From assembly GCA_003151515.1 (NCBI GenBank), contig PLXS01000037.1, positions 71,978 to 135,977 of the forward strand: a DNA stretch of 64,000 bases, in the 5' to 3' direction. This document shows positions 6,173 through 63,951 of the stretch, in pieces (position 1 is the stretch's first letter; each line of letters opens with the position of its first letter). Position numbers and translations under genes: made by a program. This DNA comes from Opitutaceae bacterium. GTDB taxonomy: Bacteria; Verrucomicrobiota; Verrucomicrobiia; Opitutales; Opitutaceae. The notes under the pieces are model-generated. The model was not told where the DNA came from. It saw only the letters and a program-made list of their open reading frames with translations, and did no database searches.

Positions 6173-6711
6173 AGAGACCCAAGATAACCGCGCGGCAATG
6201 GGCCCGGGTGCGCCTCTTCGCCATGGACGTGGACGGCGTCCTCACGGACGGCACCGTCTGCATAGCCTCCGACGGCACCGAGTCCAAGCGCTTCTCGATA
6301 ACCGACGGCCTGGGCCTCGTGCTGCTGCGCAAGTGCGGGGTGGAGCTGGCGTGGATCTCGGGGCGCAGGTCGGCCGCCACGGCGCTCAGGGCCTCGGAGC
6401 TCAAGGTGGCCCACGTCATCGAGGGGCGCCACGACAAGCTCGCGGTCCTGGGGGAGCTCTCCAAGCGCCTAGGCATCCCTTTGCGCGACTGCGCCTACAT
6501 GGGCGACGACATCGTCGACGCGCCCGCCATCGCGGCGGCGGGGATCGGGATATCGGTTCCCACGGCGCTGCCCGAGGCGCTCGCCGCGGCGGGCTATGTC
6601 ACCCGAAGGCAGGCCGGACGGGGGGCCGTGCGCGAGGTCTGTGACATCATCCTTCGGGTGCGCCCGAAGGCAGGCGGGAACATTCGCTCGCTCGCGCGTA
6701 CTCTTCCCTAG
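6160..6711 (+). CDS. kdsC: 3-deoxy-D-manno-octulosonate 8-phosphate phosphatase (YrbI family)
   Basis: 'FAMDVDGVLTDG...YMGDDIVDAPA' are HAD/KdsC motifs. The ATG at 6160 overlaps the E1 stop. Only the last 183 codons of the 395-aa ORF look genuine. Confidence 0.85.
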   Translation: MDVVKRPKITARQWARVRLFAMDVDGVLTDGTVCIASDGTESKRFSITDGLGLVLLRKCGVELAWISGRRSAATALRASELKVAHVIEGRHDKLAVLGELSKRLGIPLRDCAYMGDDIVDAPAIAAAGIGISVPTALPEALAAAGYVTRRQAGRGAVREVCDIILRVRPKAGGNIRSLARTLP

Positions 6712-49262: not shown

Positions 49263-50270
49263 TCAGCGGCCGAACGGCTTTGCGGCGACAAGCGCAGGCA
49301 TCGGCCGGGACGGCAACGGCGTTGCGGGCGCAACCGGGAATCCCCGAAGGAACTCCGGAGCGTCGAGCATGCGGCCGCCGGGCCTCTGCAGGCGCCGGAC
49401 GCGAAGCACCCCGAGGCCCGTGGCGACGAGCAGGCCCAGGGCGTCCGCGCCCAAGACCGAGCCCGGGGGCCCGGCGGGGCCGCCGTCCAGGGCGTCGGCC
49501 AGGCCAAACTTGACCTGAACCCCCGCGACATCGCAGGCGACCCCGGGCCACGGGCTAAGCCCGTTTATGCGCGCGGCGAGGGCCCGCGCGGGCGCGCAGA
49601 AGTCGAGCACCCCGTCCTCCCTGGTCAGACGCCGGCAGAAGCTCGCCGACGCGTGATCCTGCACGGCGAACGAAAGCTGCCCGCGCTCAAGCAGCGGAAG
49701 GGACCTGGCGAGGAGTGTCACAGCCGCTGCGGCAAGCCGGGACTCGACCTCGGCCGCGGTGTCCAGCGGCCCAATCGGCACCCTCTCCTCGCCTGCGACC
49801 GGGCCCGCGTCCAGCTCACGCACAATCCTCATGAGCGTCATCCCGGTGACCGCGTCCCCGGACGCTACCGCCGCCTGGACGGGCGAGGCTCCGCGGTAGC
49901 GCGGAAGGAGCGAGGCGTGCAGGTTGAGCGTCCCGAGTCGCGGAAGGGCGATGAACGCGTCCCGCAGGATGTGCCCGTAGGCCGCGACAAGGACAATGTC
50001 CGGGCGAAGCGCGGCCAGGGCGCCCAGAGCCGCCTCGTCCGGCCTCCCGGGCTGCATGACGGCGAGCGGGCGCCCCGCTGCCCAGGCCTTGACCGCGTTC
50101 GGCCTCACCTCCTGCCCGCGCCCGGCGGGCCGGTCGGGGCCCGTCACGACGCCCACGAGCCGCGCGCACTCTGCCCCTCCCCCCGCGAACCAATCCAGGA
50201 GCGGGATCGCGATCGGGTCCGATCCCATGAAGGCGAGTCTGGGCGGCTGGCGCACGTTGGTCATTTCCAT
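49263..50270 (-). CDS. fmt: methionyl-tRNA formyltransferase
   Basis: It has 'RLAFMGSDPIAIPLL', 'NLHASLLPRYRGASPVQ' and a C-terminal Fmt domain. Confidence 0.9.
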   Translation of the reverse strand: MEMTNVRQPPRLAFMGSDPIAIPLLDWFAGGGAECARLVGVVTGPDRPAGRGQEVRPNAVKAWAAGRPLAVMQPGRPDEAALGALAALRPDIVLVAAYGHILRDAFIALPRLGTLNLHASLLPRYRGASPVQAAVASGDAVTGMTLMRIVRELDAGPVAGEERVPIGPLDTAAEVESRLAAAAVTLLARSLPLLERGQLSFAVQDHASASFCRRLTREDGVLDFCAPARALAARINGLSPWPGVACDVAGVQVKFGLADALDGGPAGPPGSVLGADALGLLVATGLGVLRVRRLQRPGGRMLDAPEFLRGFPVAPATPLPSRPMPALVAAKPFGR

Positions 50271-51679
50271 CCGCTTCGGTCGACCTCGTCGCCGCGGGGC
50301 TTGCCCACCAGCTCAAACTCGACCGGGCAGCCGCTCAGGCTGAACTCCTTGACCAGGCCGGCCTCGAGGTACCGGCGGTAGCTCTCGGTCAGTCGCTCCT
50401 CGCGGTTGCAGAAGATCCTCACGCGAAACGGCCTGTTTCCCGTCTGCGTGGCGTAGTAGATCTTGAACCGGCGCGCCCCGATGGCCGGGGGCGGCGTGCG
50501 CCCGGCCAGCTGCGAGAGCGTCTCGTTCAACCGCGCCGTGGGCAGCTTCTTGTCGAGGGTGCGGTACAGCCTGACCGCGGAGTTGAGCATCCGGTCGACC
50601 TCGTAGCCGCTCACCGCGGAAACGAACACCAGGGGCGCGCCCGGCGTGAAGAAGAGCCGCTCAAAGAGCGCGTGCTCGTACTTCTCGCGGTAGTCGCGCT
50701 CGCTCTTGTAGCCGGGTATCCCGCCCCCGCTCCTGAACGCCTCGCGCACGAGGTCCCACTTGTTGACGACGATGGCGATCGGCTTCCTCTCCTTGATCGC
50801 CTCGCCGGCGATGGCCTTGTCCTGCTGCGTCACGCCCTCCACGGCGTCCAGGACGAGGAAGACGACATCCGCGCGCTGCATCGCGTCCAGGGAGCGCAGC
50901 CGCGCGAAATACTCGACCGACGACGCGAGCTTGGTGGCGGCCTTGATGCCCGCCGTGTCGATCAGTCTGAACGGGTAAAGCCGCCCGTCGCGCCCCTTGA
51001 ACTCGAACGGGAGCTCCACCGCGTCGCGCGTCGTGCCCGCGGTCTCGTTCACGATCAGGCGGTCGCTGCGCATCAGCTTGTTCGCAAGCGAGGACTTCCC
51101 GACGTTGGGCCGGCCGATGAAGCAGATGCAGATGGAGCCCGGCGCCTGCCCCCGCTCGCCGGCCCCCTCCCCTGGCGCGGCTGCGCCCAGCCGGCCGAGG
51201 ATCGCGCGGCGCAGCTCGGACTCGCCGCGGCCGTGCTCGGCCGAGACATACAGCGGCTCGCCCAGACCGAGGCCGGCGACCCCCTGCATGTCGGCCTTGT
51301 CCTCGTCGAAATCGGCCTTGTTGACCACGACGATGACGGGCTTGCCGCCGCGCCTGAGGCGCTCGGCGATGCGCGAGTCCAGGGCCGTCACCTGCTCAAG
51401 CCCGTCGATCACGAAGAGGATGAGCGAGGCCGTGTCTATCGCGAAGCCTACCTGGCGCTCCGACGCCTCGATTATCGAGGCGCTCGAGGTTTCGCCGTGG
51501 CGCAGCCCTATGCCGCCCGTGTCCAGGAGGGTGTAGCCGTCGGCGACCTCCGCCGACAGGACGTCGCGGGTGACGCCCGGCTGGTCGTGCACGATGGAGA
51601 TCCTCTTTCGCGCGAGCCGGTTGAAGAGGCGGCTCTTGCCGACATTGGGGCGGCCTACGATGACGACGGTGCGGGACAT
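50261..51679 (-). CDS. der: ribosome biogenesis GTPase Der (EngA)
   Basis: It has two G domains, 'IVGRPNVGKSRLFN' and 'FIGRPNVGKSSLAN', plus a KH-like C-terminus. Confidence 0.95.
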   Translation of the reverse strand: MSRTVVIVGRPNVGKSRLFNRLARKRISIVHDQPGVTRDVLSAEVADGYTLLDTGGIGLRHGETSSASIIEASERQVGFAIDTASLILFVIDGLEQVTALDSRIAERLRRGGKPVIVVVNKADFDEDKADMQGVAGLGLGEPLYVSAEHGRGESELRRAILGRLGAAAPGEGAGERGQAPGSICICFIGRPNVGKSSLANKLMRSDRLIVNETAGTTRDAVELPFEFKGRDGRLYPFRLIDTAGIKAATKLASSVEYFARLRSLDAMQRADVVFLVLDAVEGVTQQDKAIAGEAIKERKPIAIVVNKWDLVREAFRSGGGIPGYKSERDYREKYEHALFERLFFTPGAPLVFVSAVSGYEVDRMLNSAVRLYRTLDKKLPTARLNETLSQLAGRTPPPAIGARRFKIYYATQTGNRPFRVRIFCNREERLTESYRRYLEAGLVKEFSLSGCPVEFELVGKPRGDEVDRSGWK

Positions 51680-52839
51680 GGGGACGCGGCATTCACGAAC
51701 CGTTCAATCCGGTCGCACGCCTCCACAAGCTGCTCGTAGCCCGTGGCAAAGCTCGCGCGGACGAACCCCTTGCCGCCCTCGCCGAAAGCCGTGCCCGGGA
51801 CGACGGCGACGCTCTGCGCCTGGAGCAGGCCGTAGGCGAAGTCGCGGTCGCCAAGCCCGGTGGAGGCGATGCTCGGGAAGACGTAGAAGGCGCCGCCCGG
51901 CGCGCGGCACGGAAGGCCCGCGGCGTTCAACCGGCGAACGACCAGGTCGCGCCGCCTGTGGTACTGCTCGCGCATCTCCTTGACGCCGTCCTCGCCGCGG
52001 GCGAGGGCCTCGACGGCCGCCTCCTGGGAGAGGATCGGGGCGCACAGCATCGAGTACTGGTGGACCTTCATCATGGCTTCGACGAGCTCCGCGGGCCCGC
52101 AGGCGTACCCGATGCGGAATCCGGTCATCGCGAAGGCCTTCGAGAAGCCGTGCAGGAAAACGGTCCGCTCCCTCATGCCGGGCATCGCCGCGAGGCTCGT
52201 GTGCGCCGAGTCGTAGACCAGCTCGGAGTAGATCTCGTCGCTGAGCACGATCAGGTCCTTCTCGACGGCGAAGCGGGCGATCTTCTCAAGGCGCGCGCGG
52301 TCGCACGTGCCGCCGGTCGGGTTGCACGGGAAGTTGACCATCAGGACCTTGCATCCCGGCTGCCAGGCCCGCTCGAGGTCCTCGGCGTTGAGCGCGAAGC
52401 CGTCTGCCTCCCGCGTCGGCACCGCCAGGGCGACGCCGTGGGCCAGCGCGACGCTCGGGTGATACGAGACGTAGCAGGGCTGGTGGTAGAGCACCTTGTC
52501 GCCCGGGTTCAGGAGCGCGCGAAGCGCAAGGTCTATCGCCTCGGAGACGCCGACGGTGACCAGGACCTCGTCCTCGGGCCGGTAGGCCATCGTGTAGTTG
52601 CGCTCCACATACGTCGAGATCGCCCGCCTCAGCTCCAGGAGCCCGAGGTTGGACGTGTAATGGGTCTTGCCCTTCTCAAGGGCGTAGATCGCGGCCTCGC
52701 GGATGTGCCAGGGCGTGTCGAAGTCGGGCTCGCCTATCCCCAGCGAGATCACGTCCTTCATCTTGGACACGATCTCGAAGAAGTCGCGGATGCCCGACTT
52801 GGGCAGCGCCGCGACGTGGCGCGCGACGAAGCGCTTCAT
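51655..52839 (-). CDS. pyridoxal-phosphate-dependent aminotransferase (class I/II)
   Basis: 394 aa, with '[13 protein letters not shown]', 'NFPCNPTGG' and 'HGFSKAFAMTGFRIGY'. Confidence 0.9.
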   Translation of the reverse strand: MKRFVARHVAALPKSGIRDFFEIVSKMKDVISLGIGEPDFDTPWHIREAAIYALEKGKTHYTSNLGLLELRRAISTYVERNYTMAYRPEDEVLVTVGVSEAIDLALRALLNPGDKVLYHQPCYVSYHPSVALAHGVALAVPTREADGFALNAEDLERAWQPGCKVLMVNFPCNPTGGTCDRARLEKIARFAVEKDLIVLSDEIYSELVYDSAHTSLAAMPGMRERTVFLHGFSKAFAMTGFRIGYACGPAELVEAMMKVHQYSMLCAPILSQEAAVEALARGEDGVKEMREQYHRRRDLVVRRLNAAGLPCRAPGGAFYVFPSIASTGLGDRDFAYGLLQAQSVAVVPGTAFGEGGKGFVRASFATGYEQLVEACDRIERFVNAASPCPAPSSS

Positions 52840-53330
52840 GGCGAGACCTTGAGCCTTTCCGCGTCCTCGGCCGGCGCCTCGATGAGGAACGATCCCTCCT
52901 TGTACGAGCGCAGGAGGAAATGGGTGCTTGTCGACAGCACGCCCCCGAGGGTCGAGAGCTTCTCGGAGACGAAGCTCGCCACCTTCTGCAGGCTCGGCCC
53001 GTTCACGAATATGAGCAGGTCGTAGGCGCCCGACATGAGGTAGCAGGACTCGACCTCGTCGAACTTGCTGATGCGCTCGGCCAGGCGGTTGAAGCCTCCC
53101 CCGCGCTCGGGCGTCATCTTCACCTCGATCACGGCCCGCACGGCGGTCGCCTCGGCCCGGGACAGGTCCAGAACGGGCCTCCAGCCGAGGAAGATCCGGT
53201 CCTTTTTCAGCTGCTCAAGCTGCCGGTTGACTTCGGCTTCGGGGATTCCGGCTACCTGAGCTATCTGCGCAGCGGTGAGATGTCCGCCTTCCACGAGAAG
53301 CTTGAGTACCGGGTTCATAGGGGGTCGCAT
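52836..53330 (-). CDS. Lrp/AsnC family transcriptional regulator
   Basis: It has the HTH '[30 protein letters not shown]' and an AsnC-type C-terminal domain. The start is 53330 or 53318. A 4-nt overlap joins it to the aminotransferase gene. Confidence 0.8.
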
Positions 53331-53419
53331 CCTCTCACGGGTGCGCCCCGATAAGCCATCCCAAAAGAGCCTCGCGGGTATTGCGTCGGAAAGCCCGATC
53401 ATCCATGCGATGGGCTCGC

Positions 53420-54763
53420 ATGTTTGAATCCCTGACCGAAAAACTGTCCTCCGCGCTGCGCAACCTGCGCGGCGCGGGCAGGCTCTCCGACGAGAACATG
53501 GCCGCGGCGCTGGCCGAGGTGCGTGCCGCGCTCCTGTCCGCCGACGTCCACTTCAAGGTCGCCCGCGAGTTCGTGGAGCGCGTCCAGGCCCAGTGCGCCG
53601 GCCAGGAGGTCCTCAAGGGCGTCACGCCCGGCCAGCAGGTAATCAAGATCATCCACGACGAGCTCGTGCGCCTCCTGGGCGAGGGTTCGACCGGCGTGAG
53701 CGCCGCCCGCCCGCTCAAGGTGCTCATGGTGGGCCTCCACGGCTCGGGCAAGACGACCTCGACTGCGAAGATCGGCCGGCTCCTGAAGAAGCGCGGCTAC
53801 CGCCCCTTCGCGGTCGCCTGCGACGTCCAGCGGCCCGCCGCCATCGACCAGCTGGAGATCCTCTCCGGGCAGGAGGAGATCGGGTTCTACTGCGACCGCG
53901 CCTCCAAGGACGTGCCCGCGATCGGCAGGGCCGGGCTGGCCGCGGCGGCGGCAGCGGGAGCGGACGCCGTGCTCTTCGACACGGCGGGGCGCCTGCAGAT
54001 CGACGAGGTGCTCGTCGCGGAGGTGAAGCGCCTCGGCGCCGAGGTGAGCCCGGACGAGGTGCTCCTCGTCGTGGACGGCGCCTTGGGCCAGGAGGCCGTC
54101 AACGTGGCAAAGGGGTTCCACGACGCCCTGCAGCTTACGGGCCTTGTCCTGACGAAGTTGGACGGCGACGCACGCGGCGGCGCGGCGCTGTCCATAAAGT
54201 CCATAACGGGGACCCCGATCAAGTTCGTCGGCACCGGCGAGAGGACCGAGGACTTCGACGCGTTCTACCCGGACAGGCTCGCGTCGCGAATCCTCGGCAT
54301 GGGCGACGTCGTGTCCCTTGTCGAGAAGGCCAAGGAATCGATCGACGAGGCCGAGGCCGAGCGCATGGCCGAGAAGATGCGCAAGGCCGACTTCAACCTG
54401 GAGGACTTCCTGGCGCAGCTTCAGCAGGTGAAGAAGATGGGCTCCATGCAGAGCATCGTCGGGATGCTCCCCGGGATGAGCGGCGTGCAGCTGGGCGACG
54501 GCGCCGAGCGCCAGATGGCCCGAACGGAGGCTATCATCCGATCGATGACCTTTCAGGAGCGGCGCAAGCCCGAGGTCCTCAACGGCAGCCGCAGGCAGAG
54601 GATCGCAAACGGGGCCGGCGTGAAGATCGCCGACGTGAACCAGCTCATAAAGCAGTTCCAGCAGATGCAGAAGGTTATGCGCATGATGAAGGGCGGCAAC
54701 CAGAAGAAGCTCATGCGCCAGATGGAGGCCATGAAGGTACGGGGCGGCTTTCCGGGGATGTAG
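53420..54763 (+). CDS. ffh: signal recognition particle protein Ffh
   Basis: The ATG at 53420 gives '[18 protein letters not shown]'. G-domain motifs '[10 protein letters not shown]' and 'DTAGRL' are present, and the M domain is Met-rich. Confidence 0.95.
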
Positions 54764-54868: not shown

Positions 54869-55099
54869 ATGAAGACCTATTCCGTGACTGAGGCCAAGGC
54901 CAAGCTGGGCCCTCTTGCCGATTTGGCGCTCAAGAAGCGCCCCATCTTCATCCGGAGGGGCCAACGGATACTCCAGCTGGTTGAGGCAACGCTCCCCGAG
55001 CCGATTCCCCATTACCCTGAAGGGCATTTCGCCGTCGGAGAGGAGCGCGCCGCATATCTGAATTCCCTTCCCGTGGATCCGGAGCCGCTCGATCGATGA
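54869..55099 (+). CDS. type II antitoxin, Phd/YefM-like
   Basis: 76 aa. 'YSVTEAKAKLGPLADLALKKRPIFIRRGQRILQLV' follows the Phd/YefM N-terminal pattern. It has an ATGA overlap with the next gene. Confidence 0.7.
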   Translation: MKTYSVTEAKAKLGPLADLALKKRPIFIRRGQRILQLVEATLPEPIPHYPEGHFAVGEERAAYLNSLPVDPEPLDR

Positions 55100-55440
55100 C
55101 TTCCATTCGCCAATGGGACATTGTCCGGGTGCGGATTAATGCCAATGACCGCGACGAACATCCGGCCATCATTCTTTCGCCGGCAGAGGTTTCATTGTCG
55201 CCGCGTGTTGATCGCGTAAACGTCATCTACGGGTCGACACGGAGGCCGGGGCAAGATCTTCGTCCAGGTGAAGTCATTCTTGATGAGGCTGACGGCTTGG
55301 ATCATCTGACTGTTTTCGACTGTCTCCTTTTCCCTGTGGTTAAGAAAGGCGCCATTTCGGCGGTCGTTGGTCACATCTCGGCCGAGCGCAAACGTCATTT
55401 GCATCGGACTCTGGTCGCGGCCCTTCGGCTCTTCTCGTAG
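55096..55440 (+). CDS. type II toxin, MazF/PemK-like
   Basis: 114 aa. 'WDIVRVRIN...DEHPAIILSP...DHLTVFDCLLFPVVKK' parallels the MazF/PemK beta-barrel motifs. Confidence 0.65.
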   Translation: MTSIRQWDIVRVRINANDRDEHPAIILSPAEVSLSPRVDRVNVIYGSTRRPGQDLRPGEVILDEADGLDHLTVFDCLLFPVVKKGAISAVVGHISAERKRHLHRTLVAALRLFS

Positions 55441-55561: not shown

Positions 55562-56149
55562 TCAGGCGAACCTGGGGCCCCCGCCCCGCCCTCCCGGGGG
55601 GTAGTACCTGAGCACCATCCAGTTGATCGCAACAAGGATGAACAGGCCCGGCAGGCCGCTGGACACGCTTGCGATCGCCCATGAAAGGGCCCCGCGCCCG
55701 TCTATAAGGGACGGAAGCATCGCGGCCGCCAGGGCCGCGACCGCCATGCACGCCAGATAGGCGGGCGCCGCGAGGAACCAGCGCGCCCCCGCCCGCGCCA
55801 GCAGCGCCCGCATGGCGGCAACGAACACGAGCAGCTGCAGGGACATCATGGACGCGCCCGCCGGCGCCGGGTGCGAGGTCAGGGCCCAGTTGAGCCAGGG
55901 CGCCAGGAGCGCGACCGCGAACGCGGTCCCCTGGCGGCCGACAAGTGCAGCAAGCAGCGGCGCGTAGAACATCGGCAGCAGCCGCACCCCGAGTCGGGAG
56001 TCCTGGGGGACGGGGATGATGTGGATCAGGAACGGGAACATCACCGACAGGCAGAGCAGGATCCCGAGCTCGCGGGCCGTTGAGAGCGTGAGGAACCGGA
56101 CGGTGCGCCCGGTTCCGGCCATAGGTGTGTCACTCATCGCCGGGCTCAT
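55562..56149 (-). CDS. polytopic membrane protein, uncharacterised (weak ECF-S-component-like look)
   Basis: 195 aa with about 6 hydrophobic segments. It lies 57 nt downstream of the AKR gene on the same strand. Confidence 0.5.
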   Translation of the reverse strand: MSPAMSDTPMAGTGRTVRFLTLSTARELGILLCLSVMFPFLIHIIPVPQDSRLGVRLLPMFYAPLLAALVGRQGTAFAVALLAPWLNWALTSHPAPAGASMMSLQLLVFVAAMRALLARAGARWFLAAPAYLACMAVAALAAAMLPSLIDGRGALSWAIASVSSGLPGLFILVAINWMVLRYYPPGGRGGGPRFA

Positions 56150-56206
56150 GGATGATGGAGTCGCACGGCGGTGGCGATCGCGTTCTTCTGGGCCCCTGGG
56201 CCGCGC

Positions 56207-57400
56207 CTACGCGAGGAGGCCGTGGGCCTCCCGCATGAGCTCGCCTATGGGCAGCCCGCGCGGGCAGGCCTTCTCCGCCCGCGAATAATCCAGGTGCGCG
56301 ACGCGCGCCCTCGTCTCGGCGGGGATCTCCGCGAAGAGCGAGCGGGCGTCCACGTCGTCCCCGTAGTTTCGCCTGTACATGAGGTGGCGAAGGACGTCAG
56401 CCACCGGCACGGCGTTGCCGATCGCCGGCTCGCACAGGCGCCGGCACCCGGCGCAGTAGCCGGCCGACGTCGCGGTCGCGTACCGCTCCAGGGCGTCGCG
56501 GTCCGCCTCGGCGAGGCTCGTCCTGTCGAGGGCGGCGGCGATGTTCTCGTGGCAGAACTTGAGGTTGGGCATCTGCACGCACGCGACCGAGATCTGCGGG
56601 TTCTCCATCACCACCTTGAGCTTCGCCTGGCCGGGCGTGAACCCGCGCGCCGTGATCGGCGATAGCAGGTCGGCCTGCTCCTGCGTGTCCAGGCGCAGCC
56701 TCTGTCCCTGGGTCTTCATCGCGGTTAGGCCAATGCCGGCACTGTGGCACGCGTCGACCGCGGCCATGAGATCCGGCTCCTTCATGACGCGGTAGTTGTA
56801 CGTGAACAGGATGCCGTCTATCCACCCGAGCTTCGCGGCGCCGGACAGGCACTGGGCCATGTTGCTGTGCGTGCTGAAGCCGAAGAACCTGATCTTGCCG
56901 GCCCGCTTGGCCTGCTCGGCGAAGGCCCTGGCCTCAGGCGTGTCGACGTCGGAAATGTCGCCGATCCCGTGGCACAGGAACAGGTCGACGTAGTCCATCT
57001 GCAGCCGCGCCAGGGACTCGTCCAGGGTGCGCATGTAGTCGGGGCCGCGGCCCTTCGTGACGATGAACAGGCCCTTGCGCACGCCCGGGTTCTTCTGCAG
57101 GAACATGCCGATGCCGCGCTCGCTGCCGCCCTTCTCGTAGACCGCGGCGGTGTCCCAGTAGGTGACTCCGCGGTCGAGCGCGTGGCGCAGGATGATCTGG
57201 TTGTCGATGATGTCGAACATGCATCCCAGGCCGACGATGGGCACGTCGACCCCGGTCCTGCCGTACTTCTTGGTGGGGATGGCCAGTCTCGGGGCGTCCC
57301 CGCCCCAGACGAGGGCGGGCGCCATCATGGCCCCCAGCCCGGCTGCGCCGGTCGCCGCCAGGAACTCCCGGCGGGAGATGACACGCTTATTGGCTTTCAT
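56207..57400 (-). CDS. Tat-signal aldo/keto reductase with C-terminal [4Fe-4S]-type Cys motif
   Basis: It has the twin-arginine signal 'SRREFLAATGAAGLGA', an AKR core ('GVTYWDTAAVYEKGGSE', 'FIVTKG') and the C-terminal motif 'CAGCRRLCEP...CPRG'. Confidence 0.8.
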   Translation of the reverse strand: MKANKRVISRREFLAATGAAGLGAMMAPALVWGGDAPRLAIPTKKYGRTGVDVPIVGLGCMFDIIDNQIILRHALDRGVTYWDTAAVYEKGGSERGIGMFLQKNPGVRKGLFIVTKGRGPDYMRTLDESLARLQMDYVDLFLCHGIGDISDVDTPEARAFAEQAKRAGKIRFFGFSTHSNMAQCLSGAAKLGWIDGILFTYNYRVMKEPDLMAAVDACHSAGIGLTAMKTQGQRLRLDTQEQADLLSPITARGFTPGQAKLKVVMENPQISVACVQMPNLKFCHENIAAALDRTSLAEADRDALERYATATSAGYCAGCRRLCEPAIGNAVPVADVLRHLMYRRNYGDDVDARSLFAEIPAETRARVAHLDYSRAEKACPRGLPIGELMREAHGLLA

Positions 57401-58946
57401 GGTGCAAAAGGATGGCGTGGCCGCGATCGCGCGACTCGTTGTCGGCCGTGACCCGGATGGCGCGCAGCCCGTTCATGGGGCACTCGTGCTCGCAGACGCC
57501 GCAGCCGATGCAGCGGGCCGGGTCGACGACCGGCCGCTGCAGCCGCACCGTCCCCCCGTCGCGCGTCGCCTGGACTGCCTCCTCGAGGTGGATCGCCTTT
57601 GGCGAGACCGGGCAGATCTCCTCGCAGACGATGCAGGGGCGCTCCATGGCCCAGGGCAGGCACCGGCCGCGGTCCACGAAGGCCAGTCCCACCCGGATGG
57701 GCCCGGCGGCCTCGAAGCCGCCCCTGCCCATCCTCTCGTCGAGCGACAGGGGCCTGATGGCCCCGGTCGGGCACGCGTGGCCGCAGGCGACGCAGTTGGC
57801 CTGGCATCCGCTCGAGCCGATGCGGTTGTTGAGCGTCGGGGTCCACAGCGCCTCCCAGCCCCAGGCGAACCCGGCGGGCTGCAGCACGTTCGTCGGGCAC
57901 ACGCGCACGCACTCTCCGCACTTGATGCAGCGCGCGAGGAACTCCTCCTCGGCGACCGAGCCCGGTGGCCGGATCATGCCGGCGGGCCAGTTGCCCGCCG
58001 TCGCGCCCCCGAGGCGCGCGAGCGGGGCGACCGCGAGGCCGGCCGCGACAGAAACCATGAAGTCGCGCCTGGAGATGCCGGGCGCCGCCACCTCGCCCGC
58101 CGGGGAGGGCCGCTGGCCGTAGCCCACCGGCTCGACGGACGGGCAGTCGTCCAGGCAGTTCATGCACATCATGCACTCGCTCAGGCGGATCGGCCCGACC
58201 GGATTGCATGCGCCCGCGCAGTCCAGGTCGCACAGGCCGCATTCGATGCACTTGGCTCGGCGCGTCACGATGCTCCACGGCGAAAGGCGACCGACGACCC
58301 CCAGGAGGGCGCCAAGCGGGCAGACGAAGCGGCAGTAGAAGCGGGGCACGGCGAGGTTTAGCAGGACGAGAGCGAGGAAGAGGGCCCCTATCAGGCCCGC
58401 GCCGCTGTAGAACCGGCTGGCCACGCCCCTGCCCGCCGCAAGGTCGCCAAGCGACAGCACCGCGAAGTTGAACGACCGGGTAACCAGGGGGATGGGGTCA
58501 AGGAGCCCCGTCTGCAGCGTGGCGAGGGCCATCTTCCCGACGGGCAGGAGCGCCGCCGCCAGCAGCGCCGCGAGAATGCCATACTTGACGGCCTGCGCGG
58601 GATGGTATCGGTTCGCCTCCATGCGGCGCTTGAGCGGCCGCGACCGCTGCCCCAGCCAGCCCATGAAGTGGTGAATCGTTCCAAACGGGCAGATCCACCC
58701 GCAGAAGACGCGCCCCAGGAGGATCGTCAGCGCGACGATGGCCAGGGCCCACAGGAGCCCCGGGTGGAGCGAGCGCGTGGTCAGGGCGGTGCCCGCGGCG
58801 ACCAGCGGGTCGAGCTCGAGGAACCAGCGTATCGGCCAGCCCCTCCACTGCCAGGGGCGGGTCCCGACGGTGGCCACGACGCACAGCCACGCGAAGAGCG
58901 CGAGGAAGAAGGCCTGGGCGATGCGCCGTGCGGTGGTGATTCGCAT
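57387..58946 (-). CDS. NapH/MauN-like membrane polyferredoxin (4Fe-4S binding protein)
   Basis: Membrane motifs 'CGWICPFG' and 'CRFVCPLG' are followed by repeated CxxCxxCxxxCP ferredoxin motifs (CIECGLCDLDC, CMMCMNCLDDCP, CIKCGECVRVCP, CIVCEEICP, CIGCGVCEHECP). Confidence 0.85.
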   Translation of the reverse strand: MRITTARRIAQAFFLALFAWLCVVATVGTRPWQWRGWPIRWFLELDPLVAAGTALTTRSLHPGLLWALAIVALTILLGRVFCGWICPFGTIHHFMGWLGQRSRPLKRRMEANRYHPAQAVKYGILAALLAAALLPVGKMALATLQTGLLDPIPLVTRSFNFAVLSLGDLAAGRGVASRFYSGAGLIGALFLALVLLNLAVPRFYCRFVCPLGALLGVVGRLSPWSIVTRRAKCIECGLCDLDCAGACNPVGPIRLSECMMCMNCLDDCPSVEPVGYGQRPSPAGEVAAPGISRRDFMVSVAAGLAVAPLARLGGATAGNWPAGMIRPPGSVAEEEFLARCIKCGECVRVCPTNVLQPAGFAWGWEALWTPTLNNRIGSSGCQANCVACGHACPTGAIRPLSLDERMGRGGFEAAGPIRVGLAFVDRGRCLPWAMERPCIVCEEICPVSPKAIHLEEAVQATRDGGTVRLQRPVVDPARCIGCGVCEHECPMNGLRAIRVTADNESRDRGHAILLHHESQ

Positions 58947-58952
58947 GGGCGC

Positions 58953-59963
58953 TCAGGCGTTTGCGGGCGCCACCCGCACCGGGCGCAGCGACTCGTAGTC
59001 GGTCGTGCCAAGGCCAAGCGCGCCCGCGCGCACGAGGTAGGGCAGGTCGCGGTACGTCCGCCCAAGGAGCGTCGCCCCGAGCGCGTCCGCGGCGACCCCG
59101 TCGGTGCTGACGATGAGGGTGTTCGTCTCCTTCAGATCGGCCAGCGACCCGCCCGTGGGCCCGTTCGCCATCATGCTGTCCGTTCCGTCGAGCACGACTA
59201 GGGTCGGCCTCACCATCATCGACAGCTCGACGATGATGCCGTCGATGTCCTGGTGAAACTGGTTCCTGCGGCCGCCGAGGAGCCCGTACCAGTTCTTCAT
59301 GGTCATCGAGGCCCCTGCGCGGTGGTGGCTCTTGACCGGGGCGACGCCGATCAGCTTGGTGACCCCGAAGAACGGCTCGTCGAGGACGGGCCAGTCGCGT
59401 ATGAGGCTGGCTCCCTTGAGCGTCCCGCTGCGGAAGGAGCCGGGCCCGGGCACGTAGAGGTCCGCGCCGGACGCGCGCGCTGCGGGCCCAATGCCGGTCA
59501 GCTCGAAGCAGCTCTCGGGGGCGTTGATGGGGTTGTCGGTCACGACCACCGACGCCGCGCCGGCCGCCCTGCACAGGCGCACCAGCTCCGAGAGCAGCTC
59601 CGGGTTCGTGGTCGCCCCGATCATGGCCGGGGTTGCGAAGGCCGCGTTCACCTTAACCATGACGCGGTCGCCGCGCTTGATGAAGCGCTCGATCCCGCCG
59701 AGCGCGGCAAGAGCGCCCCGCAGCATCGCCGGGCGGTCGCGCCCGGTGGCTATCCCCATGGAGGGCCCGGGCGAGCGCATGGAGAAGTCCCTGCGGGCGT
59801 CAAGGCTTCGCATCCGGCTGAAGTCGCCCGGGGGATGACGGTCAAGGAGCCAGGCCGAGAGGCTCCCGGCGGCGGCAATGGCGGCCCCCGCCTGGGCGCT
59901 GCGGCGCAGGAACTCTCGGCGCGTTTGCGATAAACCCTGAGGAATTGGCTGCTCCGGGCTCAT
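58953..59963 (-). CDS. Tat-signal DUF362 domain-containing protein
   Basis: It has 'TRREFLRRSAQAGAAIAAAG'. 'VMVKVNAAFATPAMIGATTNPELLSELVRLCRAAGA' matches my recollection of the DUF362 core. Confidence 0.7.
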   Translation of the reverse strand: MSPEQPIPQGLSQTRREFLRRSAQAGAAIAAAGSLSAWLLDRHPPGDFSRMRSLDARRDFSMRSPGPSMGIATGRDRPAMLRGALAALGGIERFIKRGDRVMVKVNAAFATPAMIGATTNPELLSELVRLCRAAGAASVVVTDNPINAPESCFELTGIGPAARASGADLYVPGPGSFRSGTLKGASLIRDWPVLDEPFFGVTKLIGVAPVKSHHRAGASMTMKNWYGLLGGRRNQFHQDIDGIIVELSMMVRPTLVVLDGTDSMMANGPTGGSLADLKETNTLIVSTDGVAADALGATLLGRTYRDLPYLVRAGALGLGTTDYESLRPVRVAPANA

Positions 59964-60964
59964 TGGGGTCCATTCGCCAGCCGCGCGGCAATGACGGAGA
60001 GCCAGCGCTCAGCCGACTGGCGGTCCGCGGCCTGGTGCACGCCGCCGAGGTAGGGTCCCGACGAGAAGACCGCCTCGTACCTTCCCTCGAGCTCGACAAG
60101 CGATGCGCCCAGGGGCGCGGCCGGCGCGGCCGCCGCCTTGCCGCCGCAGTCGTCCACGAAGAAGGAGCGCAGCTCCTGCGCCTGCCTGGCGGCCTCCTGC
60201 GCCGTGGCGCGCCTCGCGGCGAACAGCGTCACCTCGCCCGCCCCGTCCCGGTAGCGGGCGATGAAGACATTGGAGAGCTTGTCGGAGCCGAAGACGTCGG
60301 ACGGCACGAGCGCCACGGTTCCGGCGATCTGCCCCTCTGAGGGGAAGAACGCCTCCTCGGCGCCGACGTTCGCGTGCTCCGTGACCGCCGTTGCGGCGAC
60401 GAATGAGCGGGCAAGCGCCTCCGCCGCCCGCATCGTGGACTGCGCGCGGTCCGAACAGACGAACTCGGCGTAGTACCTGCCGTGGACGATGCAGAGCTCG
60501 TTGTCGGCCTCGTAGCTGTAGTCAGCGATGGCGGCGTCGGCGGCCTTCGGCCGCCTTTGCGAGCTGAACACCGAAAACGCGTTCGACGGATTGCCCATGT
60601 CGAACACGAACGCCTCCATCCATGCCGGCGGGCTCCCCGCGAGGCCCACGCGCTGGGCCTTGAGCGAAACGAACCCGGCCGACAGGTACAGGTCCGCCTT
60701 CCCGTCAATCTTGTCGGAGAGCGTGTCCGGCCCGAACGCCTCCTGGGCGCCCATGGGCGAGAGGCCGTCCGGCCAGCTCGCGAGCAGCCCCTGCGCCCGG
60801 ACGCCGGGCGCGGGCGCCCCGGCCGCCGAGGCGGCCAGGACCGCTGGGTCGAAGACCCTCTGGCGCAGGCAGACGCCCGCCAGGACGCTCGCCAGCACGA
60901 CGAGCGCAGCCGCCGAGATCGCTTTTTCCCCAGCGCCCGGGCTTCTTGCCTTCGAATAGGACAT
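59960..60964 (-). CDS. membrane-anchored hypothetical protein
   Basis: 334 aa with an N-terminal anchor 'ISAAALVVLASVLAGVCL'. An ATGA-type 4-nt overlap joins it to the DUF362 gene. Confidence 0.55.
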   Translation of the reverse strand: MSYSKARSPGAGEKAISAAALVVLASVLAGVCLRQRVFDPAVLAASAAGAPAPGVRAQGLLASWPDGLSPMGAQEAFGPDTLSDKIDGKADLYLSAGFVSLKAQRVGLAGSPPAWMEAFVFDMGNPSNAFSVFSSQRRPKAADAAIADYSYEADNELCIVHGRYYAEFVCSDRAQSTMRAAEALARSFVAATAVTEHANVGAEEAFFPSEGQIAGTVALVPSDVFGSDKLSNVFIARYRDGAGEVTLFAARRATAQEAARQAQELRSFFVDDCGGKAAAAPAAPLGASLVELEGRYEAVFSSGPYLGGVHQAADRQSAERWLSVIAARLANGPQ

Positions 60965-61116: not shown

Positions 61117-63951
61117 CTAGGCCCTGGCCCGGTTCCGGCGCAGGCGCGCCGCGCCGGCGGCCGCGAGGCTCAACGCCGTGAATAGAGCCCCGTACGCCGC
61201 GGGCTCCGGTGTGGGCGTGACCTGCAGGTCGTACGACTTCCACTCCGTGTTGAGGTTGGAGTAGCCCGAGAAATAGACCTGGTCCATGGGCGGGGCTCCG
61301 CTCGTGTTCTGCGTCGCGCCCGTGAAGGTCTGCGCGTAGAAGTAATCCGTGCCGTCGGTCCAGTTGTCCACCGTCAGCGTGAACCCGTTCAGGTTCAGGT
61401 TGGAGACGTCAAGGGTCGTCGAGCTCGGGCTCGCGAAGTCGATGATCGAGTTGCCCGACAGCGAGAAGGTTCCGAACGTCGAGTTCGTGCCGTTGAGGAA
61501 AAGGGTCCCTCCCGCGAGGGTCAGGTTGACCGAGGGCGTGTTGAAGCTGGTGCCGAGCGTGAGCGAGGCCCCCGAGTTGATCGTGAACGTGCCGCTTCCC
61601 GTGAGCGTGCCCGAGAATGTCCCGGAACCGCCCGAGAGCGTCAGGGCGCCCCCCGACCCGAAGGCGATCGTGCCCGATCCCGCAACGGAGCCGACCGTCT
61701 GGCTCGTCGTGCCGAGGGAGAGCGTCGCGGATGACGCGACGGTCAGCAGGGAGGCGTTGTTGAGCGAGTTGGAGGCGCCGAAGGCGAGCGTGCCCGCGCT
61801 CACGTTCGTCGGGCCGCTGTAGGTGTTGGCGCCCCCGAGGGTCAGGGAGCCCGTCCCGGCCTTGGTCAGCGCGTCCGACCCGGTTCCCGCTATCACGCCG
61901 TTGAAGACCACGTTGTTCGCCTGCGTGTCGATCGTTCCCCCTCCGCCCCCGTTGGAGATCGTGATGGTGCGCCCCGAGCCGATCGTGAAGCCCGACGTCG
62001 CCTGGAGCGTGCCGCCGCTCAGCGTGATCCCGTTGGACGCGCCGCCAAACGCTCCGTCGGCCCCGGCCTAGAGCGTCGCCCCGGAGCCGACATTGATCGC
62101 GCCCGTGAAGCTGTTGGCGGAATTGCCCAGGACGGCCGTCCCGGCGGCGACGCTGACCGGGCCCGTGCCGCTTATGGGACCCGTCGCGTTGACGGTGCCG
62201 TTGGCCGACGAGGCGCCGTACGTCAGCCCGTAACCCCCGAGCGCCTCCGTTCCCGTCAGGTTGAGTTGCGTGCCGCCGGCCGCGGCAATCGTCGAGGCCG
62301 ACCCGAGCGTCACCGGTCCCGCGAAGCTGTTTGTGCCGGAGATGTTCTCTAGCGCGCCGCTCCCGCCGACTCCCGCGCCATTGAGCGAGACCGCCTCGAG
62401 CGTCGAGTAGGTGATGCCGCCTTGGAGACCAAGCGTGCCTCCGCTGTTGACCGTAGTACCGGCCGCGGTCGTGCCCAGGGCCCCGTTCGCCGCGGCGACC
62501 AGGGTGGCGCCCGAGTCGACAGTCGTCGCCCTCGCGTAGGTGTTCGCCGTGGATGAACTCAAGACTGTCGTCCCGAAGGCAGCCGTTATGGTCCCCGTCG
62601 TGCCCGTCACCTGACCGCTCACGTCGACCGTTCCCGTGCCCGTGGACGTGCCGAAGGTGAGGCCGAAGGTCTTGATCGCCAGCGTCCCCCCGAGGTCCAG
62701 GGTCTGCCCCGAGGAAGCGCCGATTGTCGAGGCGGAGGCCAGGGTCACGCCCGCCACGGTGTTGGTCCCGGAGAGGCCCTCCAGGGCGCCCGCCGAGCCG
62801 GAGACCCCGGCCCCGTTGACCGTGATGGCCTGCGTGTTGGTCACGCCCCCTTGAAACCCGAGCGTCGCGCCGCTTGTGATCGTTATCGCGCCCGTGCCGA
62901 GCGCGCTGTTCGACTCCGCGATCGCCGTGCCGAACGCGACGGCCGTGGCCCCGGAATAGGTGCCGTTGCCCGAGACGACGATGGTTCCCGTTTCACCCGC
63001 GGTGCCAAATGTCGCCTTCGTGGTGCCCCCGATGCCCCCCGAAAGCGTCAGCTGCGTTCCCGAGGCGGCGCCGTACGACGTCGCGCCGCTCTGGGTGATG
63101 GCGCCCGACAGGGTGTTGGATCCCGACGAGTTCAGGATGGCGCCGGCGGCGCCGACCCCGGTTCCGGTCGCCGTGACCGCGTTGGCGACCGTGACGCCTC
63201 CGGTCAGGGAGAGGGTCCCCCCCGACGCCACGGTCATGGCGGAGGCTCCCAGGGCGTTTGACGAGGCCGCGGTTATCGTGCCTCCGGAGGCCACCTTGGT
63301 CGCCCCCGAGTACGTGTTGTTTCCCGACAGGGTCAGGTTGCTCGTGCCCGAATAGGTGATGCTGCCCGCCGCCGACCCGCCGTTGGCGACGGTGCCGGAC
63401 ATGTTGACCGCGCTCGCCCCCTTCACCGTCAGCGTGTAGCCCGTGGCGCCGGACCCCAGGTTCACGTTGCCGAAGAAGTCCATCGCGCCGCTGGTGGCGG
63501 TCCAGGTCTGGCTTCCGGAGAGCGTGAATGCGTTGTAGAAGGTTTGCGTGGCCGTCACGGTGTTGGCGTTGGTGATGCCGCCCGACAGGGCGAGCGTGTG
63601 CGCGTTCTCCGTCCCCACCGCATCAAAGGTGTATGCGTTGGTCGTTCCGCCGGCCGCCGAGAACGTAAGCGATGCGGCCGTGGCCGATGGAATGAGCGTC
63701 ACCGAGACATCCAGTCCCGTGGTCGCGTTGAACGTCACCGCGCTTGTGCTGATTGGCACGCCGGCGCTCCAGTTGCCCGCGGTGCCCCAGGATGAGCCGG
63801 CAGCCGTGGCCGTCCAGTTGTCGGCGGCGGCCCGGACCCGCGGCGAAAGGACGCAGACCACGAGCGCCAGCGCAAGAAAGCCGGTGGCTTGCGGGCCCAA
63901 GAGGAGTCCGCCAGGCCTTCTGCCAAGCGTGACTGGCTGCAACAGCGTCAT
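61117..63951 (-). pseudogene. PEP-CTERM-anchored autotransporter-associated beta-strand-repeat protein, interrupted by one in-frame TAG (62068-62070)
   Basis: ORFs 62068-63951 (signal peptide plus repeats) and 61117-61911 (repeats plus 'PTPEPAAYGALFTALSLAAAGAARLRRNR', the PEP-CTERM anchor) are in the same frame. The 156 nt between them are open and read 'AGADGAFGGASNGITLSGGTLQATSGFTIGSGRTITISNGGGGGTIDTQANNV'. Confidence 0.65.

Follow-up and report, generated by a model that had tools for sequence, protein, structure and literature searches.

A conserved Tat-linked DUF362, polyferredoxin, and aldo/keto reductase module in Opitutaceae as a possible periplasmic nickel-pincer/Fe-S oxidoreductase

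Until 2026 the known nickel-pincer enzymes were LarA-type racemases/epimerases alone; NphT and an ornithine cyclodeaminase were then added (PMC13524815). NphT is a nickel-pincer-dependent hydride transferase of the aldo/keto reductase (AKR) superfamily (PDB 9YEB; Semersky et al., Nat Chem 2026, PMC13524815), and the same work reported that the nickel-pincer mononucleotide, rather than NAD(P)H, can be bound by AKRs whose genes lie beside larB, larC, and larE. A second described relative of the locus treated here is the polytopic polyferredoxin (PFD), which Tooke et al. 2017 (eLife) recognized as a fusion of NapH with NapG (PMC5449189). We analyzed an operon of five genes at positions 55,562 to 60,964 of a 64,000-nt stretch of contig PLXS01000037.1 (Opitutaceae bacterium, assembly GCA_003151515.1), which whole stretch we call the window. 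Numbered from 1 to 5 in the direction of transcription, the genes encode a DUF6599 protein, a DUF362 protein, a predicted NapH-NapG fusion, an AKR, and a multi-pass membrane protein (Table 1). An original prediction, made from the letters of the window, had read them as a Fe-S-rich redox module exported by twin-arginine translocation (Tat). We put the chances at about even that the operon specifies a Tat-assembled, membrane-linked periplasmic nickel-pincer/Fe-S oxidoreductase.

To collect relatives, one genome per species was scanned with the DUF362 orthologue alignment; at least 584 matches were obtained, and the best 80 loci were kept and annotated locally, with the window proteins as queries and 10-kb flanks. 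Loci are cited below by our L numbers. At ~50 of the 58 loci whose flanks were covered in full, genes for DUF6599, Tat-DUF362, polyferredoxin, and Tat-AKR stand in the same order on one strand, and this order was seen in Verrucomicrobiota (Opitutaceae and others), in many Desulfobacterota (including Desulfoferrobacter suflitae and Desulfocicer vacuolatum), and in Planctomycetota. The arrangement of genes 1-4 thus recurs across three phyla far beyond chance, and this neighborhood survey bears out their predicted co-conservation. Wherever a locus has upstream DNA, the DUF6599 gene immediately precedes DUF362, with two exceptions. The pair occurs without polyferredoxin or AKR at three loci (L045, L056, and L068), and at three others polyferredoxin is present with no AKR within 10 kb (L055, L078, and L084). 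Clustering of the flanking open reading frames (ORFs) at the 80 loci gave no further neighbor in more than 12 of them; a rhomboid-like protease and apparent thiamine genes, noticed by eye, were considered as conserved partners and set aside as lineage synteny only.

A shorter version was found in Parabacteroides distasonis (L097, NZ_OY725750.1, 7887-10424), where a Tat-DUF362 gene is followed by a polyferredoxin gene without DUF6599 or AKR. The DUF362 protein there carries MKRRDFL and H185-x9-K195-x13-H209, and the 532-aa polyferredoxin has 30 Cys, two C-x3-C-P motifs, and an internal SRRTFL. Because Parabacteroides has both without DUF6599 or AKR, DUF362 and polyferredoxin form the broadest pair. 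This two-gene version belongs to a human-gut species of Bacteroidota; its sequence record is labeled "plasmid 5" but may be chromosomal, given the presence of tgt and lptF/G.

The AKR encoded by gene 4 supplies a link to nickel-pincer chemistry. NAD(P)H is not present outside the cytoplasm, which makes a periplasmic AKR odd. When gene 4 was compared by itself with PDB sequences, NphT (9yeb) was the third-best match, and with a profile of 19 gene 4 orthologues 9yeb_A ranked first among PDB sequences (E 5.8e-26, covering 237 positions). In the HMMER alignment, GFSTH178 of gene 4 falls on GITGH144, TAM-K229 falls on TI-K200, and the tetrad D83/Y88/K116/H144 falls on D47/Y52/K75/H106 of NphT (9yeb chain numbering equals paper numbering +3, as calibrated on eight residues). 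Among 59 gene 4 orthologues, H178, K229, D83, K116, and H144 are each kept in 59/59, and Y88 and S176 each in 58/59. Canonical AKRs in the same PDB search have Ser-Asn where gene 4 has Thr-His, and we take the Asn at the H178 position to be nicotinamide-binding. In NphT, the cofactor is attached covalently via Lys200, nickel is held by His144, and the tetrad D47/Y52/K75/H106 is kept; its survey reported the His/Lys pair absent from canonical NAD(P)H AKRs (PMC13524815). Gene 4, which the original prediction had treated as a generic Fe-S AKR, therefore carries the NphT His/Lys signature and has in common with NphT the AKR tetrad, the nickel-ligand His, the tethering Lys, and a Thr/Ser contact.

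The two proteins also differ. NphT is a 291-aa monomer, as its paper states, that performs a redox-neutral disproportionation, and the paper's text has no mention of Tat, periplasm, Fe-S, or DUF362 (PMC13524815). By contrast, gene 4 has a Tat signal, with borderline matches to TAT_signal (Pfam) and TIGR01409 (NCBIfam), and a ~100-aa C-terminal extension with 4-5 conserved Cys. Among the orthologues, C316, C319, and C323 are invariant (59/59), while C274 is kept in 58/59 and C379 in 56/59. Its place in an operon with a polyferredoxin implies net electron transfer, unlike NphT. Extra AKR paralogues stand beside the module at six loci (L022, L064, L074, L080, L081, and L086; all Desulfobacterota except L064, which is Limisphaerales), and where there are two Tat-AKR paralogues the second copy lies upstream or downstream of a single module. 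The extra AKRs keep the twin-arginine motif, a Lys motif of the GLTAMKT type, and CxxCxxxC, and GFS[TA]H is found in all but one (L064). Their sequences suggest interchangeable, substrate-specific catalytic subunits that share one electron wire.

In some relatives, genes for cofactor synthesis adjoin the AKR gene of the module, just as larB, larC, and larE adjoin the gene for NphT. At L001-L003, where DUF362 is 72% identical to gene 2, larE-larB-larC come directly after the AKR gene and share its strand; in L001 the gaps are 18, 8, and -4 nt. The NCBIfam equivalog cut-offs are passed by LarE (240.7 vs. 150 bits) and LarB (263.2 vs. 175 bits), as well as by LarC1 and LarC2. When metagenomes were scanned with a LarE of the L001 type, the same seven-gene arrangement was found in L087 (97% identical) and in L088 and L089 (71%). 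We count L088/L089 as a second lineage because their LarE is only 71% identical, which gives two lar-adjacent lineages, both Opitutaceae-like (L001-3/L011/L087 and L088/L089). Two close LarE relatives, L090 and L091, do not have the module upstream, and no LarA homologue was found in any lar-adjacent module locus. The five-gene account was therefore incomplete: two related lineages have larE-larB-larC as further genes of the operon. The lar link is real but rare as an adjacency.

Gene 3 would provide the path for electrons. The original prediction recognized this 519-aa protein as NapH-like only, on the basis of membrane motifs that it wrote as CxxCP; their correct form is C-x3-C-P, as in NapH. 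Residues 4-269 match the NCBIfam models NapH/MauN (E 1.7e-18, residues 46-269) and NapH (E 1.2e-15), both below the curated cut-offs. Besides four hydrophobic helices, this part has a pair of C-x3-C-P motifs and a pair of CxxCxxCxxxC motifs, the latter predicted to hold cytoplasmic 4Fe-4S clusters. Residues 292-500 form a NapG-like domain (NapG, E 8.4e-28; MauM/NapG, E 1.3e-25) with 16 invariant Cys, enough for four 4Fe-4S clusters and predicted to lie in the periplasm. Ahead of this domain stands ISRRDFM, a twin-arginine motif inside the protein at residue 293, whose R293 and R294 are kept in at least 95% of 66 orthologues. Each of the 30 Cys is kept in 64-66/66 of the same orthologues; the many ferredoxin-type Cys motifs noted earlier are there, and the count, given as at least five, is exactly six groups. 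Gene 3 remains below the equivalog cut-offs for NapG proper (97.2 vs. 269 bits) and NapH proper (57.4 vs. 234 bits), and no nap genes lie near the operon in the window. NapGH of E. coli and Wolinella succinogenes has the same domain families and Cys motifs, including two C-x3-C-P, but NapG and NapH are there separate polypeptides serving NapAB/NapC, whereas gene 3 is a single predicted fused chain.

The nearer likeness is to the PFD of delta proteobacterium MLMS-1, for which it was shown experimentally that the general secretory (Sec) pathway inserts the first helices and that Tat then handles the last helix and the domain that follows (PMC5449189). A weak last helix and the positive charge after it drive this Sec-to-Tat handover (PMC5449189). 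Gene 3, like that protein as published, has NapH-like helices with cytoplasmic clusters, a NapG-like four-cluster domain, and a twin-arginine motif directly before a weakly hydrophobic last helix followed by positive charge: its fifth helix has a Kyte-Doolittle value of 1.56 vs. 2.1-2.4 for helices 1-4, and Arg310 comes after it. On these sequence features, gene 3 is a NapH-NapG fusion of the dual Sec/Tat PFD architecture. No partners or function were assigned to the MLMS-1 protein in its published description, whereas the partners of gene 3 are DUF362, DUF6599, and AKR proteins. Most gene 3 orthologues (L007, L022, L030, and others) have ~645 aa vs. 519 aa in the window, the long forms having two inserts, one of 60 aa after residue 133, which forms two additional hydrophobic helices, and one of 70 aa after residue 465. 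The 519-aa form, which is without both inserts, is common to the window and some Opitutaceae.

Gene 2 belongs to DUF362, a family that the original prediction left without clues to function and that is often joined to Fe-S domains (PMC5742341). Its AlphaFold2 (AF2) model has a predicted local distance difference test (pLDDT) score of 76.8, and the top nine Foldseek matches in the PDB are all LarA-family nickel-pincer enzymes (E 3.5e-5 to 1.5e-3; template modeling score ~0.32-0.45), mostly over 242-288 aligned columns and in one case over 204. DUF362 and the N-terminal domain of LarA share one Pfam clan, CL0471 (PMC11770544), and the Pfam DUF362 model scores genuine LarA at 25.7-26.1 bits vs. 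a 24-bit threshold, with LarA residues 82-245 on profile positions 18-171. In fragment scans, gene 2 residues 204-229 fall without gaps on profile positions 102-127, and residue 117 on position 16. On these Pfam coordinates, LarA His174 and gene 2 His213 are one position apart, within a local motif that both proteins have, S-H-xx-A-G-x-S-xxx-K. The LarA residues in contact with the cofactor are Arg75, Lys184, and His200; those with a catalytic role are Asp72, His108, His174, and Lys298 (PMC7583248). Gene 2 residues H213, K223, and H237 are each present in 81/81 orthologues. In a homologue search for gene 2, 4974 of 8000 scored candidates were at E<=1e-10. The triad recurs in Parabacteroides and, as H-x9-K-x14-H, in a cytoplasmic fusion of DUF362 with two ferredoxin motifs of the CxxCxxCxxxC type, encoded at 5077-6303 (-) of L084, where it adjoins a module without AKR; the LarA-like triad therefore looks family-wide in DUF362.

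Gene 2 thus resembles LarA (DUF2088; PDB 5HUQ) in overall fold by Foldseek, in Pfam clan, and in the S-H-xx-A-G-x-S-xxx-K...H motif, with LarA's cofactor-binding Lys and His apparently kept. It differs in being ~90 residues shorter, in having a Tat signal and Fe-S protein partners, and in leaving the Lar_N model silent; neither Lar_N nor LarA_C matched gene 2 even at E<=10. We do not file it as a LarA-type racemase. At its N-terminus, the AF2 model has a helix of residues 15-42 after the twin arginines, with weak likeness to Rieske Tat anchors (E 0.14-0.65), and this long hydrophobic helix may, on the model, serve as an uncleaved signal anchor. At least one public gene call for the identical protein (P0007, 268 aa, 100% identity over 80% of gene 2) starts at a downstream Met and loses the N-terminal 68 codons with the Tat signal; the presence of the twin arginines in 81/81 orthologues supports the long form over that start. 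The best NCBIfam match of gene 2 is NF052623 (the Npun_F2552 family, apparently named for a Nostoc punctiforme locus tag), at E 1.3e-12 and far below its cut-off. Most cyanobacteria make the nickel-pincer cofactor and are without LarA (PMC11796402), so the Npun_F2552 family could be a cofactor user.

The remaining two genes are less informative about chemistry. Gene 1 has a confident AF2 model (pLDDT 90.8) with an N-terminal membrane helix at residues 11-37 (60854-60934); its two alpha/beta domains have a predicted location beyond the membrane, on the outside. Its fold found no significant match in the PDB (best TP0453, E 0.015, template modeling score <0.3), and its orthologues have no conserved Cys or His motif. 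We read the modeled protein as a probable non-catalytic, membrane-anchored partner of DUF362. A public 523-aa protein (P0296) that looked by Pfam like a DUF6599-DUF362 fusion was rejected as an assembly chimera, with its junction out of frame and a C-terminus, RSEEHTS, typical of sequencing adapter. Gene 5 was described as having six transmembrane segments; it is multi-pass, with a count of 5-6 hydrophobic segments, and has no Pfam or NCBIfam match. Its family has 253 representatives of ~180 aa. Searches of Pfam, NCBIfam, and PDB sequences with the protein and 50 family members gave isolated weak matches only, one member faintly matching ECF_trnsprt (E 6e-4) and one CbiM (E 0.015). Among the 80 loci, gene 5 homologues adjoin the module in L009 (downstream) and L028 (upstream) and no others. 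This confinement to two Opitutaceae loci, at different positions, makes gene 5 an Opitutaceae accessory rather than part of the core, and the proposed five-gene unit reduces to four.

From these parts we propose a mechanism in which we infer what the cofactor and the substrate are, that the Fe-S sites are occupied, that the proteins form a complex coupled to quinone, and which way the electrons flow. The pincer cofactor and Fe-S clusters would be inserted in the cytoplasm and the cofactor-bearing parts exported folded via Tat; in this proposal, cytoplasmic insertion makes all three redox proteins Tat-dependent, and the conserved twin arginines in DUF362 (81/81) and AKR fit cofactors that are made only in the cytoplasm. 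The gene 3 product would be the electron wire: Sec would insert its four-helix NapH-like domain with two cytoplasmic 4Fe-4S clusters, and Tat, acting on the internal twin-arginine segment, would move the NapG-like four-cluster domain to the periplasm. The gene 4 product would be the substrate-specific catalytic subunit, with a nickel-pincer nucleotide on Lys229 and nickel on His178 replacing NAD(P)H. Its tetrad would support hydride transfer between the pincer cofactor and a substrate in the periplasm, which would be an alcohol, hemiacetal, or carbonyl, and its single C-terminal 4Fe-4S cluster would exchange the two electrons with the NapG-like clusters, from which they could pass via the NapH-like domain to the membrane quinone pool. 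The gene 2 product could be a second holder of the pincer cofactor or a redox partner docking on the polyferredoxin, and gene 1 a scaffold or substrate-binding subunit, membrane-anchored, non-catalytic, and paired with DUF362. Oxidation of the substrate with delivery of electrons to menaquinone is thermodynamically easier and would be the likeliest direction. In its logic the module would resemble MsrPQ, in which a membrane electron carrier serves a periplasmic enzyme that Tat exports with its cofactor already in place, and glucose-fructose oxidoreductase (GFOR), in which a nicotinamide-type cofactor travels via Tat. The cofactors of MsrPQ (molybdenum and heme b) and GFOR (NADP) differ from those of the module, and the proteins are non-homologous.

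Several points weigh against this proposal. There are no lar genes in the 64-kb window, and within 10 kb they occur at just 1 of the 80 genome loci, with the other 79 lacking them, so that production of the cofactor by this organism is only presumed. Gene 4 is of the NphT type as judged by sequence, and NphT's own mark is a shortened cofactor cavity, which excludes the AMP part of NAD(P) (PMC13524815). The known nickel-pincer enzymes (LarA-type racemases/epimerases, NphT, and ornithine cyclodeaminase) catalyze redox-neutral reactions (PMC13524815), and the nickel-pincer literature examined gave no precedent for one-electron exchange between a pincer cofactor and Fe-S. Quinone coupling is suggested by likeness to NapGH alone. 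The Parabacteroides pair, being without AKR, also means that the AKR cannot be the sole catalytic partner.

For gene 2, the counterparts proposed for LarA residues depend on HMM coordinates, motif identity, and the order of secondary structure, and direct profile comparisons were non-significant. This was so for hhalign of 12 DUF362 orthologues vs. LarA, for hmmsearch of LarA with an 81-sequence DUF362 model, and for hhalign of a 195-sequence DUF362 alignment (103 after filtering) vs. a 121-sequence LarA alignment. The large hhalign run gave an alternative register, K203/H213, which we rejected: it needs indels of +19/-15 relative to the Pfam coordinates, and K203 is Arg in 5/81 orthologues. 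A search for LarA homologues returned close relatives only (77-99% identity), with no gain for the profile. Aligned by eye on Pfam coordinates, gene 2 has no counterparts of Asp72, Arg75, or His108: Asp72 falls on Ala108, His108 on Ile146 or Asn147, and Arg75 apparently on Thr/Ser, so that of the catalytic residues mapped (Asp72, His108, and His174) just the counterpart of His174 (H213) is present. Because the profile comparisons were non-significant and these LarA residues are missing, we regard pincer binding by DUF362 as a supported hypothesis, not a finding.

The scarcity of lar genes, in the window as at 79 of the 80 loci, is also what would be expected if the module used no nickel at all. 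It would then be a quinol-linked periplasmic oxidoreductase whose AKR is exported with tightly bound NAD(P), or works with its Fe-S cluster alone, and whose DUF362 protein is an Fe-S-associated subunit of unspecified chemistry. The intact AKR tetrad and a barrel that seems complete to ~residue 300 agree with this, and Tat export of an NADP-loaded enzyme is established for GFOR of Zymomonas. We nevertheless think such an account unlikely, since the canonical Asn position is His in 59/59 orthologues, the NphT tether Lys is equally invariant, NphT is the closest solved relative of gene 4, and larEBC are joined to the operon in two lineages. The same His/Lys pair is the one reported absent from canonical NAD(P)H AKRs (PMC13524815).

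A different distribution of roles keeps the nickel-pincer cofactor and moves it to gene 2. Nickel-pincer catalysis would then truly reside in DUF362, which would also be the polyferredoxin's ancestral partner, with DUF6599 specific to DUF362 and the AKRs later additions. The AKR in the complex of the window would be auxiliary, either contributing a second activity or donating electrons or hydride to DUF362. The Parabacteroides pair argues for this, as do the loci that lack both polyferredoxin and AKR (L045, L056, and L068) or have polyferredoxin without AKR (L055, L078, and L084), the family-wide H/K/H triad that extends to the DUF362-ferredoxin fusion, and the frequent joining of DUF362 to Fe-S domains (PMC5742341). 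Set against these are the three LarA residues without counterparts in the by-eye alignment, the want of a statistically significant residue-level alignment with LarA, and the fact that lar genes adjoin the AKR gene, not DUF362. On balance we find this division of labor rather doubtful.

AKRs are classically carbonyl reductases, and menaquinol reduction of aldehydes or ketones is uphill by standard potentials. A periplasmic repair or detoxification system working in the reductive direction, with electrons passing from quinol or from low-potential cytoplasmic donors outward via the NapH-NapG fusion to reactive carbonyls/aldehydes in the manner of MsrPQ or NapGH, would agree with NapGH being a quinol dehydrogenase that delivers electrons outward (PMC5449189) and with NapH-half cytoplasmic clusters that could take electrons from cytoplasmic donors, but flank clustering at the 80 loci gave no stress-regulator gene or other conserved neighbor, and we hold this version, which concerns direction only and is compatible with a nickel-pincer cofactor, to be very improbable.

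Table 1. Coordinates of the operon genes and their sequence features in the window
Feature	Position	Strand	Remarks
Gene 1, DUF6599 protein, 334 aa	59960-60964	-	
Gene 2, DUF362 protein, 336 aa	58953-59963	-	
Gene 2 twin-arginine motif TRREFL	59907-59924	-	R15 and R16 in 81/81 orthologues
Gene 2 H213-x9-K223-x13-H237 (HHRAGASMTMKNWYGLLGGRRNQFH)	59253-59327	-	Proposed equivalents of LarA His174/Lys184 (tether)/His200 (nickel ligand)
Gene 3, NapH-NapG fusion polyferredoxin (predicted), 519 aa	57387-58946	-	
Gene 3 N-terminal half, NapH-like membrane domain	58071-58946	-	From NCBIfam, hydropathy, and Cys positions
Gene 3 C-x3-C-P motifs	58686-58703, 58317-58334	-	
Gene 3 internal twin-arginine motif and fifth transmembrane segment ISRRDFMVSVAAGLAVAPLARLGG	58005-58076	-	
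Gene 3 C-terminal half, NapG-like domain	57387-58004	-	Overlaps gene 4 by 14 nt
Gene 4, aldo/keto reductase (AKR), 397 aa	56207-57400	-	
Gene 4 Tat signal peptide (SRREFL)	57302-57400	-	R10 in 59/59, R11 in 58/59 orthologues
Gene 4 GFSTH	56867-56881	-	H178 aligned with NphT His144 (nickel ligand), S176 with NphT Thr142
Gene 4 TAMK	56714-56725	-	M228-K229 aligned with NphT Ile199-Lys200 (covalent cofactor tether)
Gene 4 C316-x2-C319-x3-C323	56432-56455	-	Candidate 4Fe-4S ligands
Gene 4 C274 and C379-P380	56579-56581 (C274), 56261-56266 (C379-P380)	-	Further candidate ligands of the same single 4Fe-4S cluster
Gene 5, multi-pass membrane protein, 195 aa	55562-56149	-	

The five ORFs, all on the minus strand, have the coordinates and junctions first given for them (-4, +6, -14, and +57 nt for genes 1-2, 2-3, 3-4, and 4-5), and the motifs TRREFL, SRREFL, CGWICPFG, CRFVCPLG, and CAGCRRLC...CP were all found in the proteins. 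Pfam assigned gene 1 to DUF6599 (PF20244, E 1.6e-39), gene 2 to DUF362 (PF04015, E 3.7e-35), gene 3 to Fer4_5 and several Fer4 families, and gene 4 to Aldo_ket_red (PF00248, E 8.8e-25), with TAT_signal weak. The G+C content is ~68-70% in the window and no different in the operon from the remainder, and the closest homologues are annotated as Opitutaceae (Verrucomicrobiota). Scans for promoters and terminators gave nothing above shuffled expectation.

Housekeeping genes lie at 49263-54763 (fmt, der/EngA, a class I/II aminotransferase, an Lrp/AsnC regulator, and ffh (SRP54)) and place the operon in an ordinary chromosomal setting. Between ffh and the end of the operon, a 114-aa ORF at 55096-55440 (+) has no Pfam or NCBIfam match; its N-terminus looks slightly similar to MazF/PemK-type toxins, a likeness that no tool supported. 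Just upstream of the operon, at 61117-63951 (-), are two Gly/Thr/Ser-rich repeat proteins with matches to the passenger-associated transport repeat (PATR), the shorter of which appears by eye to end in a PEP-CTERM-type tail.

Taken singly, the parts of the module are known or just-described families. Their combination, namely a pincer-type AKR with Fe-S and Tat signatures, a LarA-like Tat-DUF362, a dual Sec/Tat polyferredoxin, and a DUF6599 anchor, is absent from the literature searched. Searches for DUF362, for DUF6599, and for periplasmic AKRs with NapH found no description of such an operon, in keeping with the original prediction, which knew of no characterized homologous operon. Its predicted Tat-dependent, Fe-S-rich extracytoplasmic redox module is likewise supported by the conserved twin-arginine motifs and Cys sets.

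A far broader idea, which we rate as improbable, is that all DUF362 proteins, including the DUF362-ferredoxin fusions, form a second LarA-derived nickel-pincer class in which hydride chemistry is coupled to one-electron Fe-S wires, and that this operon encodes the first respiratory, quinone-linked nickel-pincer complex, built on two pincer scaffolds (LarA-like and AKR). About 15% of surveyed genomes make the nickel-pincer cofactor without LarA (PMC11796402). If true of DUF362 as a whole, the idea would explain part of that ~15% and would make the pincer cofactor flavin-like, converting two-electron to one-electron chemistry.

Hundreds of species, spread over Verrucomicrobiota, Desulfobacterota, and Planctomycetota, have the module itself, with a pincer-type AKR and a LarA-like DUF362 protein behind Tat signals beside a predicted six-cluster polyferredoxin, and it may be the first respiratory-type nickel-pincer enzyme. 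If so, nickel-pincer chemistry would reach the periplasm and net electron transfer, the dual Sec/Tat polyferredoxins would gain their missing partners, and DUF362, a large family of unknown function, would gain a testable cofactor hypothesis. The module thereby makes the users of the pincer cofactor in organisms without LarA a testable question.

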